In this document: positions 4,779 to 42,240 of the stretch, piece after piece
How positions within the stretch are numbered: the stretch's first letter is position 1
How the letters are laid out: the number at the start of each line of letters is the position of its first letter
DNA from: Candidatus Sulfomarinibacteraceae bacterium
Lineage (GTDB): Bacteria > Acidobacteriota > Thermoanaerobaculia > Thermoanaerobaculales > Sulfomarinibacteraceae
DNA length: 64,000 nucleotides
Direction: 5' to 3'
Assembly (NCBI GenBank): GCA_963796455.1
Contig: CAWCLO010000001.1
Location: 832,001 to 896,000, forward strand
Notes under the pieces: model-generated
What the model saw: the letters and a program-made list of their open reading frames with translations, nothing else
Database searches by the model: none
Told to the model about the DNA's origin: nothing
Made by a program: the position numbers and the translations under genes

Positions 4779-7700
4779 TTATCCGAAGACCTGGTTTGCT
4801 TTTCCGATCCTCAACATCTCCTTCGTTCTCTCCGCAACGTCAACGACCTCCGGATCACTGTCCTCGAGCGCATCATTCAGGACATCTCGGGCAGGCCCCT
4901 TGTTTTCGAAGAGTATCAGCGCGCGAACCGCATTGCGCCGTACTCTCGGATCGATGTTACGGCTGAATTGCTCAATAAGTTCGAAGGCCTCGCCCTCGGC
5001 GATTTTGCCGCTGCTGATCAATTCGATCAGCACAGAGCTGGCTGCCTCCACATTCCTCCCCTCGCCGCTCTCGAGAGCGGCGATCAGAAGATCCTTGCCG
5101 GTCTTTTCCACACCATAAAAAAGCGCAAGGGCAGTGATGTGACGCACCGTTTCCGAATTGTCGTTGAGCGCATCCGCAAAACGAGGATCGGTGTCCGCGC
5201 CGATTCGAACCAGGATCCCCAGAAGATCCTCGAGGCGTTTGCTGTGGAGCCCCTGCTTCGCCCGCTGCAGAATCCGATCATTGAGAGCGACGGTGCCGAA
5301 GGTCCCAACACAATTCACCGCGTTCGCGTAGCGCGAACTGAAGCCCTCACTGGCCGCCTTGCCCGGCTCGTACTCGGGCGGCGCAATGCGCTCGGTGTCC
5401 ACCGCTAGATCGACGAAGTCCGGGAAATGACCCTCGCCGCATTCGGCCAGACCGACCGACGGTCTGTTCTGGTAGGCGTGGGCGGTGCCCCGGGTGAGCA
5501 TCATCCCCCTGCCCTGGACCTTGATCGCCAGTTCTTTCTGGTGTCTGTTGAATTCGGGACCACCACCCGGTGAGCGGAGACTCATCATCGCGAGGAGGAT
5601 CACGATGACGGCTGCAGCCGCCCCAGCCGCTTTCAACCCGATATTTCGGGTCGCGCTCTCGATGATCTGTTTGGCCGGCGCCACCCTCTCTTCGCGCTGC
5701 CTTTTCTCCGCCAACTGTTGGGTTCGTTCGCGCTCCTCGGTGCGGCTCTCGGCTCGGAATCGAACCAGCTTCTCGAGTTCCCGTTCGACCCGATCCGGAG
5801 CGAGCCAGCCATAACCTCGCCTCTCGAGATCGGTCAACAGTGCCTTGAGCTGATCTTCGGTCCATTTCGGAACCGGGGCGTTCGTGTTTTCACCTTCGCG
5901 TTGGCGAATAAAGACTTTCAGAAAGGGCAGAACTCGGTCGTCCCACGATCCGCGTTCGGGCAACTCCGGCTCCCAATCCAGGAACCACAGCCGCAGGCTC
6001 GAGTCGCTGCCGGCGGACAAGGCACCACCGCCGTCTCGGGCGATCGAAATATCCGCAATCGGACCTGCATGGCCTTCAACCACCCACACCGCGGAACCGG
6101 TCCTGGCATCCCACAGACGGATCGTGGAGTCCTTTCCCGCGGACAAGAGGAAGCGCGCGTCGGGACTGAAGGCAATCGCAAGCACGGGGCCATCATGCCC
6201 CGTCAGAACCCTCCAACACCGACCACCCTCGAGATCCCACAGGCGAACTGTTCCATCCTCTCCAGAGGATGCCGTGAGGCGACAATCCGGACTGACGGCC
6301 ACCGCATGGACCGAACCTTCGTGGCCCTCCATTCGGCGGAGCTCGGCACGCCTGCGAAGACTCCATACGGTCACCAGGCTGTTCCATCCACCACGAACGA
6401 GGTATTGCCCGTCCGCACTCGCCGCGATCGCAGACACTCCCTCCTGGCTGCTGCCCAAAAGCTCGGGCAGCAAAGAATCATCGAGTGGCCAAAGGCGCAC
6501 GGTTCCATCGTCGCCGGCCGAGATCACCGCACGTCCGTCCGGCGTGAAAACGACCGCCTGTACCGTTCCTTCGTGGCCATCAAAGCTATGGGTCTTCTTG
6601 CCGTCGGACAACTGGCCTACTCGAACCGTGTGATCGCGGCCCGCCGAGGCAAAATGCTGTCCGTCCGCACTGACTGCGACAGAAGTGACGCCCTGTTTGT
6701 GGGCATCCACGACGATCCTCTCGGCCCCGGACACGGCGTCAAAGATCCGGATGGTGCCATCACCACAACCGGCGACGCAGCCGGCGCCATCGACCGTCAA
6801 CGCACAGGCGGTCATGGGAACTTGACCGCTGCCAAAACGACGAAGCTCGACCACCGATCGCGGCGCCTCTTTCGGAAAGAAAGCCAGCACCCTGTTCCAC
6901 AGCTTGAGAGCCTCCTCGTGAAGCTCGTAGCCTCGCACTTCACGCGCCCTACGCAACGGCACGATCGCACTTTCGGCACGGCCGTTTTCGATCAGACCGC
7001 GGGCTTCTTCGAGGAAAGCCTGAAATTCCGTTTCGCGACCTGCGAGCTCTCCCGACGCGGCGGTGTCCGCAAGCACCAGCGGCAATCTGGAGGCACGTGG
7101 CTCTGGCATAGCGATCCGGCAAACTGATGATCCAAAGGCGGCCAGCAGCTCGTTCCCATCAGCGTCGGCAACTAGATCCTGAATCGGATTTGCAAGCCGG
7201 ATGACTCTCTGGGCCTCACCGCTTTCAAAGTCCCAGATTCGAATCGTGCCATCTTCGCCACCGGATGCGATCGATGAACCGATCATCGTCACGGCGGTCA
7301 CTGCTCCGCGCAGACCCCGCAGATAGCGGATATTCTCACCGGTCTTCAGGTCCCAGATCCCGACAGCTCCATCCTGGCCGCCGGAGACCGCCCAGTCACC
7401 AGTGGGATGCAATGCCAGGGCGCGTACCGGTCCTCGATGACCCTCGAGAACATGGACGCACCGACCCTGATCGAGGTTCCACACTCTGATTGAGCCGTCA
7501 GCACTGGCGGTACAGATCGATGCTTCGTTCGGATGAAAGGCAATGGCGCTGACGAATGCCTCGTGTCCTTCCAGCGTGCGTTCACACTCACCGCTCTCCA
7601 GATTCCACAGCCGGAGGCAACGGTCGGAGCCTCCACTCGCGATGACTTTGCCATCGGGTGAGGCTTCGACGCAGGTCGCGACTCCAGGGTGGGTCCTGAG

Positions 7701-9989
7701 GTTTCTCAGACGTTGCCCGTTGCCGAGATCAAAAAGCGTCAACGGGCCGTCTTCGATACAGGCGATCAAGGTGTCGTCCACCACGGTCATCGACCGACCC
7801 GGACGGGCCGACCCGCCGAGCTTGATTCGGTGGACCGCTTCATCGCTGGAGCGGTCCCAGACCACGGCATTCGAGTCGGCGCTTCGAACGACCGTCCAGC
7901 CTCCAGCCAGAGTCCGGATGGCCTGCACCGGAGCGGAGTGATTCATGACCTGTTCGATCCGGTGGCCCGGGAGATGGGCGGCCGCCGCGTCGTTCAAATC
8001 ATCGGGAAGATCCCGATCGATCGACTGCGCCGCCTCGAAGGCCTTTGATGCCACCTCTTCATCGCCGAGCCGCGAACAGCACTCGGCAAAACCAAGCAGA
8101 GCGGGCAGGTCCGACGGGCTTTCAACAACGACTGTCCGGATCAGTTCGCGGGCCTGGCTCAACTCTTTGCGCGAGCTGGTCGTTCGAGCAGAAGCGAGGA
8201 GGGCGAAACCCTTTTCCCTCCGTCCTGCAAGGGATTTGACCTCGGCCCGGCTCAGAGAGTCGACTGCGGCAAGCGCTCCCGACGGATCATCCAACAGCAA
8301 CCGGAGCCGAGCACGAAGGAGACCGGCCCGGGTCGCTCCGCCGGATGCTCGTTCTGCCTCGGACAGGCGCCGCTCGAGCTCGGCATCGGTGAGACCTTCC
8401 CGGCGCCATTCGAGGAGCCCGCTGTTAAAGGTGGCCTCGATGTGCCTGGGGTCGATTTCGAGCGCCTCGTGGAAACTCGCTTCAGCTCTTTCGGCGAGAC
8501 CCAGGGTGACGTATGAAGCGCCCCGGTTGTTGAGCGAATCGGCAAGGAGCTGCGTCCGCTTCGGCTCCGGTCGGGGATAGGGACGATCGGTCGCCTGTTC
8601 GTAGATCTCCACCAACCATCCCCGCAACAGGGCGAAGGAATGGGGTCTCCGACCGACATCTTTTGCGATACACGAACGAAGGAGCGCGGCCAACCGGGGC
8701 TCCAGGGAATCGTTGAAGGTTCGCGGATCAGGTGGATCTTCTCGCAGGTGCATCCTCATCCAGCCGCTGAGATGGGCCTCTCGGGTCCGCGAGACCGAAC
8801 TCGAACCCATCACGAAGGGCCGCCGACCGCAGAAGATCTCGTACAGCATGCAGCCATACGCATAGATATCAGTGGCGGTCGTGCCGCGCAGAGCCTGACG
8901 CCACAACTCGGGTGCCATATACGGAGGCGTGCCCACGAGACCACCCTCGATGGTCACGGTCTGCCAAGAACCGCTGACCACGCTGTCGCCGCTTCGACCT
9001 CCAAGAACGGGAGGAGACTTCATCTGCGACCGGAGACCACCCTCGCCCTCGTTTTCGATCCCCTCTGCGCGCACCAGACCAAAGTCGGTGACCCGCGCGA
9101 TTCCTTCCCTCGTGACCAGAACATTTGCCGGTTTGATGTCTCGGTGGACCAGACCCTGGTGTTCATTTCCGTCAGAATCGGTCCACGGAAAACTGTGGGT
9201 GTAGTCGAGACCGCTCGCAATCTGGATCGCAATATCAAGACGTTTCGGAAGATCGATTTCGGTTTCCCGTTTCAACCACTCGTTGAGGTCACCACCGTCG
9301 ACGTATTCGATAAACAACCTCGGCATACCGCCGATGTTCTGCAGGTAATAGGCGCAACATATGTTCGGATGGACACCGAGAGCGATCCACGATTCCGCCT
9401 CGCGTTGGAATCGTGCGCTGCCGTCGGCGGAAGCGAGGACCGAAGGAAGTGGGGTCTTGACCGCAACCATCCGTCTGAGCTCGCGGTCAAAGGCAATGGC
9501 CACCACCGCCATCCCACCACGTGCCAGGGCGCGAACCTCGTATCGCCCGTCGACAACGGTCCCTTCCTGCCAGCCCCGCCGCGCTTCGGGAATTCCCATC
9601 GTCCCGTAGCTGGCAGCCGATCCTTCAGCGGACTCGACGCGTTGGGTCACGCCCGACACGGCGGCTCGCGCGATTTCCGTGGCTACCGGTGAGGGGGACA
9701 ATTCGTGGGAGACCGTGTGGGCTTTGTCGAGTTCATCCAGGGTCCGCTGACGCCAGCCCTGAGCGGTCGTCGAAGAAGGATCCAATTTGAGGCAGGTGTC
9801 GAAGGCGCTGACCGCTTCGTCATATCGACCGAGATGAAAGAGGCAATAGCCCTGATTGAGCCATGAACGGCTGTGTTCCGGGAAGCGGTCACACCAGATC
9901 TCCAGCTTGGCCAGTGCTTCTTGCCAGCGCTCCGCGGAGAGCGCGGCGACGATCCCGCGCTTCAGCTCGTCGTTCCCGTGTTCATTCAC
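4779..9989 (-). CDS. Ser/Thr protein kinase with TPRs, two WD40 blocks, one TM helix and C-terminal HEAT-like repeats (1736 aa)
   Basis: Hanks motifs VAVK, HRDIKPAN, DFG, GTPPYMAPE; many GH...WD/WN repeats; hydrophobic AAAAVIVILLAMM; DPRVRRNAVRAL and DSDPEVV HEAT-like repeats. Confidence 0.88.
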   Translation of the reverse strand: MNEHGNDELKRGIVAALSAERWQEALAKLEIWCDRFPEHSRSWLNQGYCLFHLGRYDEAVSAFDTCLKLDPSSTTAQGWRQRTLDELDKAHTVSHELSPSPVATEIARAAVSGVTQRVESAEGSAASYGTMGIPEARRGWQEGTVVDGRYEVRALARGGMAVVAIAFDRELRRMVAVKTPLPSVLASADGSARFQREAESWIALGVHPNICCAYYLQNIGGMPRLFIEYVDGGDLNEWLKRETEIDLPKRLDIAIQIASGLDYTHSFPWTDSDGNEHQGLVHRDIKPANVLVTREGIARVTDFGLVRAEGIENEGEGGLRSQMKSPPVLGGRSGDSVVSGSWQTVTIEGGLVGTPPYMAPELWRQALRGTTATDIYAYGCMLYEIFCGRRPFVMGSSSVSRTREAHLSGWMRMHLREDPPDPRTFNDSLEPRLAALLRSCIAKDVGRRPHSFALLRGWLVEIYEQATDRPYPRPEPKRTQLLADSLNNRGASYVTLGLAERAEASFHEALEIDPRHIEATFNSGLLEWRREGLTDAELERRLSEAERASGGATRAGLLRARLRLLLDDPSGALAAVDSLSRAEVKSLAGRREKGFALLASARTTSSRKELSQARELIRTVVVESPSDLPALLGFAECCSRLGDEEVASKAFEAAQSIDRDLPDDLNDAAAAHLPGHRIEQVMNHSAPVQAIRTLAGGWTVVRSADSNAVVWDRSSDEAVHRIKLGGSARPGRSMTVVDDTLIACIEDGPLTLFDLGNGQRLRNLRTHPGVATCVEASPDGKVIASGGSDRCLRLWNLESGECERTLEGHEAFVSAIAFHPNEASICTASADGSIRVWNLDQGRCVHVLEGHRGPVRALALHPTGDWAVSGGQDGAVGIWDLKTGENIRYLRGLRGAVTAVTMIGSSIASGGEDGTIRIWDFESGEAQRVIRLANPIQDLVADADGNELLAAFGSSVCRIAMPEPRASRLPLVLADTAASGELAGRETEFQAFLEEARGLIENGRAESAIVPLRRAREVRGYELHEEALKLWNRVLAFFPKEAPRSVVELRRFGSGQVPMTACALTVDGAGCVAGCGDGTIRIFDAVSGAERIVVDAHKQGVTSVAVSADGQHFASAGRDHTVRVGQLSDGKKTHSFDGHEGTVQAVVFTPDGRAVISAGDDGTVRLWPLDDSLLPELLGSSQEGVSAIAASADGQYLVRGGWNSLVTVWSLRRRAELRRMEGHEGSVHAVAVSPDCRLTASSGEDGTVRLWDLEGGRCWRVLTGHDGPVLAIAFSPDARFLLSAGKDSTIRLWDARTGSAVWVVEGHAGPIADISIARDGGGALSAGSDSSLRLWFLDWEPELPERGSWDDRVLPFLKVFIRQREGENTNAPVPKWTEDQLKALLTDLERRGYGWLAPDRVERELEKLVRFRAESRTEERERTQQLAEKRQREERVAPAKQIIESATRNIGLKAAGAAAAVIVILLAMMSLRSPGGGPEFNRHQKELAIKVQGRGMMLTRGTAHAYQNRPSVGLAECGEGHFPDFVDLAVDTERIAPPEYEPGKAASEGFSSRYANAVNCVGTFGTVALNDRILQRAKQGLHSKRLEDLLGILVRIGADTDPRFADALNDNSETVRHITALALFYGVEKTGKDLLIAALESGEGRNVEAASSVLIELISSGKIAEGEAFELIEQFSRNIDPRVRRNAVRALILFENKGPARDVLNDALEDSDPEVVDVAERTKEMLRIGKANQVFG

Positions 9990-12363: not shown

Positions 12364-12838
12364 TCCATCCCCGACATGGCGGAGGGGCAGAGGGGCAAGG
12401 GGGCGGAGGGACAGAGGACCCGCTCGGCATCCTCGCTATCGCTATCGAACGGCTGCGGTGGAAACCATTCCAGAAAGGGAGAAAGGGAGAAGGGGGGAAA
12501 GGGACAACCACCCGGCCCTGATTTCATGCGTGCGCGAATGTCGCCTCCCGATGTCATCCTGAGCGGAGCCCCGCCTTGTCACGGCGTAGCCTGAAAGGCG
12601 AAGCCGGAAGGGGCGTAGTCGAAGGATCTATGAGATGAAACGAATTGACTTCGGTCGTCCACCGGCTACTCGTGCCTTTGAACAACCCCGGGATGGCCCC
12701 ACCGTCACGGCACCTGATCGCTGCCGCTGATCGCTGTCCCCCGTCGCTGCTCCCTGCCCCTGTCGCTGTCGCTGGACACTGTCGCTGCCGCTGACGCTGT
12801 ATTACGGACTCGGACACGGGGCAGCCGCGAACCGGAAA
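12363..12838 (+). repeat. Composite intergenic repeat copy A: purine-rich octamer tracts, nested REP-like palindrome and right half of the four-helix-bundle element
   Basis: Reverse complement of 21684-22077; ~80-nt core 12535-12615 is identical; ends with the CCGCGAACCGGA motif shared with ~33600 and ~42185. Confidence 0.85.
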
Positions 12839-12878
12839 TTCTAAGAACCAGTCCCAAAAACTCCTGTTGTTGAATCGG

Positions 12879-21683: not shown

Positions 21684-22077
21684 TGCAGCGGCAGCGACAG
21701 TGTCCAGGAGACAGCGTCAGCGTCAGCGATCAGGTGCCGCGACGGCGTGGCCACCTCCGGGTCGTTCAAAGGCACGAGTAGCCGGTGGACGACCGATGTC
21801 GATTCGTTTCGTCTCATAGATCCTTCGACTGCGCCCCTTCCGGCTTCGCCTTTCAGGCTACGCCGTGACAAGGCGGGGCTCCGCTCAGGATGACATCGGG
21901 AGGCGACATTCGCCCGCGAATGAAATCAGGACCGCGTGATTGTCCCTCTCCCGCCCTCTTCCTTTCTCCCCTTCCCACCTTCAGGAAGGGTATCAATGGC
22001 AGCCGTTCGATAGCGATAGCGAGGGAGCCGCGCGGGTCCTCTGCCCCTCTGCCCCTCCGCCATGTCGGGGATGGATC
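21684..22077 (-). repeat. Composite intergenic repeat copy B (inverted copy of 12363-~12795)
   Basis: Sequence match to copy A; followed by a pyrimidine octamer tract (~22080-22150). Confidence 0.85.
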
Positions 22078-29564: not shown

Positions 29565-29847
29565 CGTTCCTGTTCCCGTGCTCGTTCCCGATCCCGGATA
29601 ACAGCGGCAGCGACAGAAATCAGAGAACAGGGACAGTGTTCAGTGTTCAGCGGCAGGGGCCAGCGATCAGTAGTCAGTGGACAGTGATCAGCGGCAGCGG
29701 TCAGGAGTCCAGGCGAGGACGTGGTCGCCCCCGGGTCGTTCAACAAAAGGAGTAGCCGGCGGTTAGCCGCAGATGACTGAAACCCGATGCCGACAACTGT
29801 TCGCTGACACTGACTTCTGATCGCTGGCGCTGTCCCTGATCGCTGCT
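29565..29847 (-). mobile_element. Empty (gene-less) copy of the four-helix-bundle element, reverse orientation
   Basis: 29680-29760 matches the reverse complement of ~33405-33480; 29801-29846 matches the reverse complement of the left arm at ~33087-33130. Confidence 0.6.
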
Positions 29848-33030: not shown

Positions 33031-33079
33031 CCCTTCATCCTCGATGCTGGATGCTGGATCACTCGTGCCCAGGTGCGAG

Positions 33080-33630
33080 TTTCGGACAGCGATCAGGGAC
33101 AGCGACGGTGAACGGCAGACAGCGTCAGCAAACAGGAGTCAGCGGCAGCGACCAGCGGCCGGGGCAGCGACAGCGCCAGCCAACACCAATCAATCCGTCG
33201 GGTCCAACAACCGCCAGGTCTTCGCACGGACTTGATCGCGATTCCTGCTGCTTCGAGGGCTTTCGAGTGGGCGACGAGGTTGGTGTTCGTGGCGGCGTTG
33301 GACATGGTCACCTCCGGGTCGTTCATGCCCTTACCCGCAAGCCGGTGTGGTGGCCGATTTCAAGGATGCCCTGCACCCTGCCTGTCCTTGACATCGGCCG
33401 CCCACCGGCTACCCCTTCCTCTGAACGACCCGGAGGTGGCCACTTCGTCGCCTGTACTCCTGACCGCCGCCGCTGATCACTGATCGCTGTTCCCTGTCGC
33501 TGGACGCGGTCGCTGTCCCTGTTCGCTGTTGCCTGTCGCTGCTAACTGTCGCTGCCGCTGCAATTCGGGCACAGACACGGACACGGGCACGGGCAACCGC
33601 GAACCGGATATGCCAACAACCAACCCGTAA
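33080..33630. mobile_element. Internally deleted copy of the four-helix-bundle element
   Basis: Left arm, gene 5' part, leader hairpin, right arm and CCGCGAACCGGATATGCCAA end all match 41394-42200. Confidence 0.75.
33190..33305 (-). pseudogene. Four-helix-bundle protein remnant with N- and C-termini joined out of frame
   Basis: MSNAATNTNLVAHSKALEAAGIAIK joined at CGATCAAG to DQVRAKTWRLLDPTD*; the intact copy ends DQVRAMTWRLLNPKF*. Confidence 0.85.
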
Positions 33631-33755
33631 ACCACTTGTTGTCAGGTGGGTAACTTCACGTGACGATCTGTTTTGGACAGCGGTGATCCAGTATCCAGTA
33701 TCCAGTATCGCCCGTCCGCGCTACGATGAGACAACAGCAATGAATCGGAGGCACG

Positions 33756-41342: not shown

Positions 41343-41497
41343 GGATTCAAGCGGGTCAAGAATCCAGCATCACGCTTGTGCAAGACAGGTTCCCGGACGG
41401 CGCTCAGGGACAGCGACGGGGAACAGCAGACAGCGTCAGCGAACAGTATTCAGGAACAGCGTTCAGCGTTCAGTCTGACTTGTATGGAGAACCGAAA

Positions 41498-41851
41498 TCA
41501 GAACTTTGGGTTGAGCAAACGCCATGTCATGGCACGGACCTGGTCAAAGGCATTCATCGCTTCGCAAGCTTGATTCCGGCTGATCGCCCCGGCGTGGGCG
41601 AGGAGCTGCAAGTGGCTGTCAACCTCTTTCGCCGAAGCGTAGGCGATCCTCCAGTGGTTCGAACGGTCTCTTCCGATTCGGCCGTGCCCTTCTGCCAGGT
41701 TCGCAGGGACTGACCTTGCCGACCGGATCACTTGATCGGCTATGGATTTCAGCGGCGCTGGAACCCTCATCACGAGCTTGATCGCGATCCCTGCTGCTTC
41801 GAGGGCTTTCGAGTGGGCAACGAGGTTGGTGTTCGTGGCGGCGTTGGACAT
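41498..41851 (-). CDS. Four-helix-bundle protein (23S rRNA IVS-protein/Avd-like family)
   Basis: DQVIRSARSVPANLAEGHGR and IAYASAKEV family pattern; GGAGGTG SD before ATG 41851. Confidence 0.9.
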   Translation of the reverse strand: MSNAATNTNLVAHSKALEAAGIAIKLVMRVPAPLKSIADQVIRSARSVPANLAEGHGRIGRDRSNHWRIAYASAKEVDSHLQLLAHAGAISRNQACEAMNAFDQVRAMTWRLLNPKF

Positions 41852-41852
41852 A

Positions 41853-41987
41853 GTCACCTCCGGGTCGTTCATGCCCATTCCCACATGCCGGTGTGGTGGC
41901 CGATGTCAAGGATGCCCTGCACCCTGCCTGTCCTTGACATCGGCCGCCCACCGGCTACCCCTTCCTCTGAACGACCCGGAGGTGGCC
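41853..41987. promoter_or_regulatory. Long double-stem hairpin covering the SD of the four-helix-bundle gene
   Basis: Perfect 17-bp stem 41855-41871/41968-41984 and 15-bp stem 41898-41912/41931-41945; second copy at 33306-33441. Confidence 0.75.
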
Positions 41988-42207
41988 ACGCCGTCGCTCG
42001 CCTGATCGCTGCTCACGACCGCTGAATACTGAATACTAATCGCTGACCGCTGTTCCCTGTCGCTGCTCACTGTCACTGCCGCTGGACACTGATCGCTGCC
42101 CCTGAATACTGCCGCTGACCTCTGTCGCTGGCGCTGGACACTGTCGCTGCCGCTGCATTGCGGGCACGGGCGCGGGGGGACCCGCGAACCGGATATGCCA
42201 AACCCAA

Positions 42208-42237
42208 CCCCTGAACCCTGAACCCTGAACCCTGAAC
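42208..42237. repeat. Heptamer tandem repeat (CCCTGAA)x4
   Basis: ccctgaaccctgaaccctgaaccctgaac, between the element end and the porin stop codon. Confidence 0.85.
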
Positions 42238-42240
42238 GCG

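Follow-up and report, generated by a model that had tools for sequence, protein, structure and literature searches.

The repeat element that lies between meaB and a porin gene in this Candidatus Sulfomarinibacteraceae genome is best explained as a non-autonomous cassette with the ends of an IS4-family insertion sequence (IS), which forms 9-bp target duplications, would be moved in trans and carries an older foldback module as its passenger. We put the probability of this reading at roughly 70%. The window, the whole stretch of 64,000 nucleotides that was analysed (G000:C1:832001-896000), belongs to an assembly of 5.02 Mb in 10 contigs (G000, below called the host genome) that is 90.5% complete. 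The focal region, between meaB (stop 41342) and the porin gene (stop 42241), and the sibling copies in the window contain the following features:

41362-41370 (+): target-site 9-mer ATCCAGCAT, on one side only, its partner gone with the far end
41371-41388 (+): terminal inverted repeat of the IS4 left-end (IRL) type, differing from the family motif at 2 positions
41389-41470 (+): CAGCG/GACAG-rich arm 3' of the gene, made of shuffled short motifs, for which pairing with the opposite arm is predicted
41498-41872 (-): PF05635/TIGR02436 four-helix-bundle gene, likely 124 aa (117 aa from the alternative start at 41851)
41853-41987 (-): leader hairpin of the PF05635 gene, with compensatory pairs in the alignment
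41934-41961 (+): TTGACA-N16-TACCCC, spaced like a promoter on the strand antisense to the gene, -10 box without its last T
41993-42160 (+): CGCTG/CTGTC-rich arm 5' of the gene
42182-42208 (+): remnant of the IS4 right-end (IRR) subterminal region, its outer ~55 bp including the inverted repeat gone
42209-42238 (+): (CCCTGAA)n heptamer array in place of the missing end
33060-33685 (-): second copy, both ends present, ORF truncated after about codon 27 of 117
29583-29845 (+): gene-less, end-less derivative comprising the arms and the 5' half of the hairpin, in opposite orientation
12645-12850 (-): half copy with IRR subterminal region, arm and 5' hairpin arm, fused to a large palindromic repeat at ~12540-12630
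21684-21800 (+): half copy with the same junction type and the same palindromic repeat at ~21810-21897

The first-pass annotation of this DNA had described the focal copy as intact and as terminated by CCGCGAACCGGA. Neither point held: the copy starts at the inverted-repeat end at 41371 and has lost its other end beyond ~42208, where (CCCTGAA)n replaces it, and CCGCGAACCGGA lies internally, ~75 bp short of the true end. The IRL-type repeat at 41371-41388 is the same asymmetric end as in IS4 relatives, and the adjoining ATCCAGCAT agrees with the family's target consensus, AT(C/G)C(A/T)G(C/G)AT. The five pieces that had been grouped as related are similar to one another, and each aligns with a complete copy at another place in the genome (E 0 to 3e-17); all five are intergenic, as had been noted. 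The copy near 33 kb had rightly been called internally deleted, its ORF being truncated, but its limits needed revision: it runs from 33060 to 33685 and keeps both ends, a degraded IRL-type end at 33060 and an IRR-type end with 1 mismatch finishing at 33685, and the heptamer arrays on its flanks are inverted, not direct. The view of the short forms as states of decay stands only in part, because the junctions of some of them recur at many loci. Folding of the complementary arms around the cargo, also proposed earlier, is predicted for both strands (z of -5.6 and -7.3, 20 shuffles each). Four DNA sequencing runs contained no piece across the focal locus and none across an empty-site or circle joint, and are uninformative in this respect.

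Both half copies adjoin a large palindromic repeat starting GTCATCCTGAGCGGAG, which has 219 motif matches genome-wide. The window also includes, at 914-2311, a gene whose product combines an N-terminal GatD domain with asparaginase domains, GatD being usually archaeal, and, at 4779-9989 (-), a gene for a 1736-aa protein kinase with WD40 repeats; repeated gene segments that resemble the latter, kinase-like by eye, are clustered at C1:1289000-1327000.

Further copies beyond the window, on which the idea of a mobile family depended, were found in number: BLASTN of the whole genome gave 235 clusters, and a census with seven probes gave 233 clusters and 224 oriented loci. Every part is present at 40 loci and both ORF halves at 69, while the gene has been lost at 155 of 224. 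Near-full ORFs recovered genome-wide number 59, 58 of them without an internal stop; five further ORFs, split by frameshifts, were excluded from the ORF statistics. The family makes up ~100 kb (2%) of the genome and is located in intergenic DNA; no locus fell within a gene under crude gene calls for the whole genome, and convergent gaps contain 82 of the 216 classified loci, compared with 17% of all gaps. Nearest-pair identity among copies has a median of 86% (51 copies) and reaches 98.4% at best, and most copies in the host genome are old. A second dispersed foldback family, at C1:2036-2810 and ~30 similar loci, is composed of nested inverted 8-9-mer arrays (CACCAAGAC and CGCAGATCA types) with a conserved middle, in which no gene was recognised.

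Boundaries are consistent across the family. Complete copies are ~820-890 bp long (about 855), read CAC…GTG and have 18-bp inverted ends that are asymmetric: the end on the 5' side of the gene is CACTGCTGTCCAAAACAG, and the one on the 3' side is CACTCTTGTCCAAGACAG. The end motifs have 262 matches genome-wide, whereas shuffled motifs yield 0, 4 and 3. Target duplications, which had been named as a check, were scored on a set of 255 end motifs that form 71 inward-facing pairs: the 9-bp duplication is exact in 21 and has at most 1 mismatch in 38, and it differs by at least 2 bases in 33. Heptamer arrays raise the number of chance matches, which was controlled by permutation; with permuted flanks, exact 9-bp duplications averaged 2.4 with a maximum of 7, and duplication lengths of 3-8 and 10-14 each gave at most one exact match among the 71 pairs. 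Nine of the 25 end pairs without an array flank have a 9-bp duplication within 1 mismatch. The target consensus is palindromic and is supplied by (GATGCTG)n arrays, and insertion prefers heptamer arrays as targets. Creation of the arrays by the insertions themselves was considered and rejected, with 59 of 166 arrays lying away from any copy and several duplicated sites having no array. Two ends of the same type occur in 10 of the 71 pairs, and four have inverted rather than direct flanks, which suggests occasional overwriting of one end by its partner.

Comparison with relatives showed the orthologous meaB-porin site to be empty, as a mobile origin would imply. The gene is present at none of 16 meaB loci, and at 5 of the 16 meaB and the porin gene adjoin directly with a short spacer. 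These empty spacers (L047, L051, L052, L054 and L056, 3' of meaB) each have a short array or palindrome of their own, which indicates that the gap attracts repeats. Among 47 gene-bearing loci of relatives, 18 are syntenic in the host genome; an ORF copy is present at none of these 18 and an ORF-less piece at four, and the latter fraction, set against ~6% of all gaps, means that sites are not independent. Insertion sites are lineage-specific. Protein matches were obtained in 31 of the 41 genomes searched, with 98 in the host genome, 54 in G006, 46 in G040 and 45 in G004. A tree of 62 rows, which includes 15 of the 59 host copies, places the copies of the host genome, G017, G014 and G040 in one group each; those of G006 and G004 do not form single groups.

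Judged by sequence, the element has its ends from a DDE insertion sequence of the IS4 family. The search for a mover took in 30 DDE_Tnp_1 loci fetched from the genomes of relatives. An intact 1411-bp IS in a congener (locus L018 of G017) has a right end identical to the gene-5' end of the element over 18 bp, and encodes an NF033592 IS4 transposase (251 bits, cut-off 115) with the Y(2)R(3)E(6)K motif. Its subterminal similarity to the element extends over ~90 bp and was equalled in 8 of 2000 shuffles; in a set of 81 IS4 loci, of which 69 share its right-end type, no other locus comes as close. Two other ISs (in G004 and G006) match one end of the element at 4 mismatches. Related IS4 ISs have the same left/right asymmetry, and 9-bp repeats are visible in several of them (exact at 8 of 49 loci, mostly metagenomic). 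The IS4Sa group is described as having CA------T ends, 8-10 bp repeats and lengths of 1150-1750 bp (PMC2266710). The element likewise has CA------T ends and direct repeats within that length range, and the IS4Sa subgroup is putatively assigned from ends, size and repeat length.

A cognate transposase of the L018 type was not found in the 90.5%-complete host assembly, where no end pair encloses a DDE/YREK transposase, and it is present in only 1 of 24 congeners; movement in trans and the nature of the mover are for this reason read from the ends. The element is likely moved in trans by an IS4Sa-type transposase. The single PF01609 gene of the host genome was rejected as a mover, having no matching ends, and neither an ISL3 transposase nor an ISL3-type end was found in that genome. 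The earlier description of a small mobile element with non-autonomous derivatives, mobilised in trans, is supported by the 224 loci, by ends with 9-bp duplications and by the empty orthologous sites. Short tandem arrays surround the intact IS4 and ISL3 elements seen in this lineage (L018:1016-2426; L193:948-2250; L214; L229; L230). The ISL3 array has a period of 8, equal to its duplication length, and the IS4 arrays have a period of 7 with a 9-bp duplication.

With terminal inverted repeats of a cognate IS, a 9-bp duplication and a passenger gene replacing the transposase, the element behaves, as far as its sequence tells, like a mobile insertion cassette except for a resident transposase. MIC231 has IS4-family ends that enclose a passenger gene and no transposase of its own, and the same arrangement is seen here. 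Differences from MIC231 and IS231 are that the ends fit IS4Sa, that ~65 copies bear the gene and that foldback cargo also occurs within ISL3 ends. Passenger-carrying IS231 elements have been reported in the IS4 family, and a 2008 survey of that family had seen no such modularity in IS4Sa (PMC2266710). Like IS4Sa ISs and their MITEs, the family has CA------T ends, 9-bp duplications and asymmetric left and right ends; unlike IS4Sa ISs, its full copies encode a selected non-transposase protein, antisense to the former transposase position. The ORF-less subfamilies have no coding capacity and are ordinary MITEs, whereas the full copies are not.

The ORF matches PF05635 at 58.3 bits (cut-off 33.8) and TIGR02436 at 59.8 (cut-off 24). 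Its predicted fold has four helices (pLDDT 93.9), with TM-scores of 0.82 to 2GSC and 2RLD and 0.79 to Avd, in agreement with the earlier view of a four-helix-bundle family sharing the Avd fold. PF05635 has been noted to resemble Avd (PMC10053308), and Avd is reported to bind a stem-loop of its own RNA (bioRxiv 2023.10.23.563531). No relative of the protein was found in viral contigs. The 117-aa minus-strand ORF of the first annotation is a real gene, but the start assigned to it is less likely than the in-frame ATG at 41872, from which 124 aa would be translated. This upstream ATG is present in 58 of 59 host copies and in all eight G040 copies checked, and the G040 copies have no second ATG.

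The outer stem of the leader hairpin pairs 41968-41987 with 41853-41871, the first codons of the gene, and the inner stem pairs 41930-41956 with 41887-41912; a purine-rich internal loop contains the likely ribosome-binding site. Across 14 sequences 47 pairs are kept, of which 17 are compensatory, and the 16 outer pairs are invariant. Rfam gave only sub-threshold matches for the hairpin. As a guide to which strand the functional hairpin is on, lone mismatches that read A-C on the gene strand and G-U on its complement stood at 9 versus 3 contexts in the host genome and 7 versus 4 in relatives, a signal too weak to choose between the strands. At 41934-41961 (+), a conserved TTGAC(A/T)-N16-18-TA geometry is antisense to the gene, and its putative transcript would be antisense to the hairpin arm covering the start codon; this promoter-like element was not called by a promoter scan, and the last T of the -10 box is present in 55 of 74 look-alikes in the host genome.

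Gene copies in the host genome are under purifying selection, with a pairwise dN/dS of 0.14. Omega is 0.11-0.17 for shared alleles and 0.58 for private alleles (p 1e-8). Values of dN/dS in five relatives are 0.08-0.30, from loci that are top-scoring matches and hence biased toward intact genes, and the shared-versus-private contrast is weak or absent in these small samples. Linkage (r2) in the host genome drops from 0.137 to ~0.025 within 80 nt (0 of 3000 permutations), and also decays in G040, G004 and G017 (0, 5 and 24 of 1000 permutations, respectively); its repetition in relatives makes an artefact of a single assembly unlikely. The gene copies recombine finely with one another.

The gene is not needed in cis for IS4-type hopping, because an ORF-less subfamily has target duplications equally often: 9-bp duplications within 1 mismatch were found for 14 of its 26 pairs and for 15 of 30 pairs of long copies. 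This subfamily has a RAYT-associated palindrome in place of the gene, with one shared junction, and 60 of the 82 matches to its motif are near census loci. At 17 loci in five congeners (G021, G008, G024, G012 and G020), the cargo between the same IS4 ends is 250-390 bp long and has no such gene; it is palindromic in the cases inspected. A pure passenger model alone, on the other hand, fails to explain selection on ~59 redundant genes.

According to the preferred reading, an IS4Sa-type transposase supplied in trans would move the cassette, and may have come from an IS like L018 that is now lost from the host genome or unassembled in it. The passenger would be an older foldback module of inverted short-repeat arms, leader hairpin and four-helix-bundle gene. 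In read-through RNA, we infer, the hairpin would bury the start codon and thereby sequester it from translation, and a likely Avd-like, oligomeric protein may bind the folded leader or the arms of its own element. Gene conversion would swap short tracts between copies; selection would remove faulty proteins, perhaps because they poison the oligomer, but tolerate deletions.

A possible but clearly less probable explanation, compatible with the preferred one and able to add to it, is that the core of arms, hairpin and gene is itself selfish. Its protein would bind folded RNA or a single strand and promote annealing or conversion into matching arrays, and IS ends would be occasional vehicles. This would accord with the varied settings of the core. 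It lies within IS4 ends in the host genome and G006, within ISL3-type ends, GGCTCATCCG, with 8-bp duplications in G017, G014 and G008 (G017 also has an intact ISL3 with GGCTCATCCG ends), and outside any IS4 or ISL3 end at all 15 loci in G004, where no outer 12-mer is common to more than 4 of the 15. Copies in G040 are flanked by direct repeats, the shared unit being upstream at 14 of 20 loci and downstream at 10 of 20. A single-clade origin of the ISL3-ended cores was rejected (p-AU 0.00017, 61 rows), 17 of 18 IS4-ended rows group together, and at locus L153 of G006 a different core lineage is inverted relative to an IS4 end. The core is accordingly multi-copy in two relatives (G004 and G040) without recognisable IS ends, and it appears from these comparisons to be older than its transposon ends. 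The stronger constraint on shared than on private alleles also fits a selfish core.

Several of these observations are, however, open to other accounts. Ends erode often, one or both being missing from 26 of 66 hairpin-plus-ORF copies in the host genome, so that end-less copies may be old transposon bursts, and on one side of 5 of the 20 G040 loci there is a third end-like motif. Weaker purging is seen for rare alleles in any case, and in relatives, where samples are small, the contrast is weak or absent. The tree test loses force through recombination, and the protein has no known catalytic motif. The third repeat end, GGTACCTGGTATAGC, has 48 matches in G040 and 32 in G036, including inward pairs.

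Inverted short-repeat flanks extend beyond this family. The four unrelated single-copy PF05635 genes of the host genome each lie between inverted short arrays, and among the top 30 PF05635 loci of the phylum, one of which was left out at a contig edge, the inverted short repeats of the flanks surpass every local control at 18 of 29, with at least 10 inverted 7-mers at 16 loci and at least 10 direct ones at 2. This distribution favours a selfish core, and it allows a broader and slightly more tentative proposal, that PF05635 genes between inverted arms are widespread enzyme-less selfish modules, in which an Avd-like protein would bind its own foldback and drive homology-based spread into arrays that match, boarding unrelated IS ends (IS4, ISL3) time and again and, once, rRNA genes as intervening sequences.

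It is unlikely that the gene is host-useful cargo selected for dosage and merely scattered by transposition. The purifying selection in every genome examined (dN/dS 0.08-0.30) and the conserved, compensated leader would suit such a role, but congeneric genomes differ widely in their number of matches (0 or 1 up to 98), the gene has been lost at 155 of the 224 host loci, and it is antisense to co-oriented neighbours in 21 cases versus 9.

A reverse transcriptase or a RAYT had earlier been suggested as a partner, and neither finds support as the mover. An Avd-assisted retroelement, whose folded RNA would be copied by a reverse transcriptase in trans, is brought to mind by the Avd-like fold and the strongly structured leader, but we regard it as largely refuted and very improbable: no RVT_1 was found in the host genome and none above cut-off in the high-copy genomes G004, G040, G019, G010 and G018, the 59 copies show no A-specific change (A 7.8%, C 8.3%, G 7.1%), and ends and duplications are of the DDE type. 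The four-helix fold predicted for the protein is like that of the Avd of diversity-generating retroelements (DGRs), from which the system differs in its 8-10% identity to Avd, with no RT, no template/variable repeat pair and no A-directed change.

Just as improbable is a REPIN-like origin with a RAYT/HUH transposase as the mover, even though the host genome has three RAYT-like genes (C1:740599, C4:209842 and C1:952604) and three other, longer Y1_Tnp genes (C4:1144044, C4:1147021 and C8:150867) and the palindrome of one RAYT takes the place of the ORF in a large subfamily; that palindrome is cargo within IS4 ends, the RAYT-like HUH genes lie amid their own, different palindromes, the flanks of the RAYT and Y1_Tnp genes do not match the ends of the element, which are not the REPs of a RAYT gene, and HUH insertion would not be expected to produce the 9-bp duplications seen with IS-type ends.

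The element is therefore not an autonomous IS, a DGR or a REPIN, nor is it an rRNA intervening sequence. It is like the 23S rRNA intervening sequences (S23p) in protein family, in complementary flanks predicted to form a stem around the gene and in a restricted translation start (PMC4990558); unlike them, it is intergenic, has IS ends and carries a gene under purifying selection rather than decaying. The 23S gene of the host genome, 3011 nt long, contains no such ORF. Elhai reportedly described, in 2008, small dispersed repeats in cyanobacterial heptamer arrays. Intergenic TAACTGA heptamer arrays occur in Beggiatoaceae, in an account with no mention of a helix-bundle gene (PMC4679880). These cyanobacterial and Beggiatoaceae systems comprise mobile DNA with intergenic arrays, as here, but carry no gene. 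No published description of a multi-copy PF05635 cassette was found in the literature, in which subscription journals were thinly covered.

To our knowledge, PF05635 is a common family whose function is not known. The origin of ORF-bearing rRNA intervening sequences, for which transposition remnants and an encoded mobility factor have been put forward as untested ideas (PMC4990558), is a long-standing question that the present family touches. The transposon layer of the element is ordinary; what deserves experiment is its core, which is under selection, recombines and swaps ends. Here a PF05635 gene is found on a defined mobile unit with a candidate transposase, dozens of selected copies, natural nulls and alternative ends, and such a system permits direct tests of the effect of the protein on mobility, on recombination and on its own translation.
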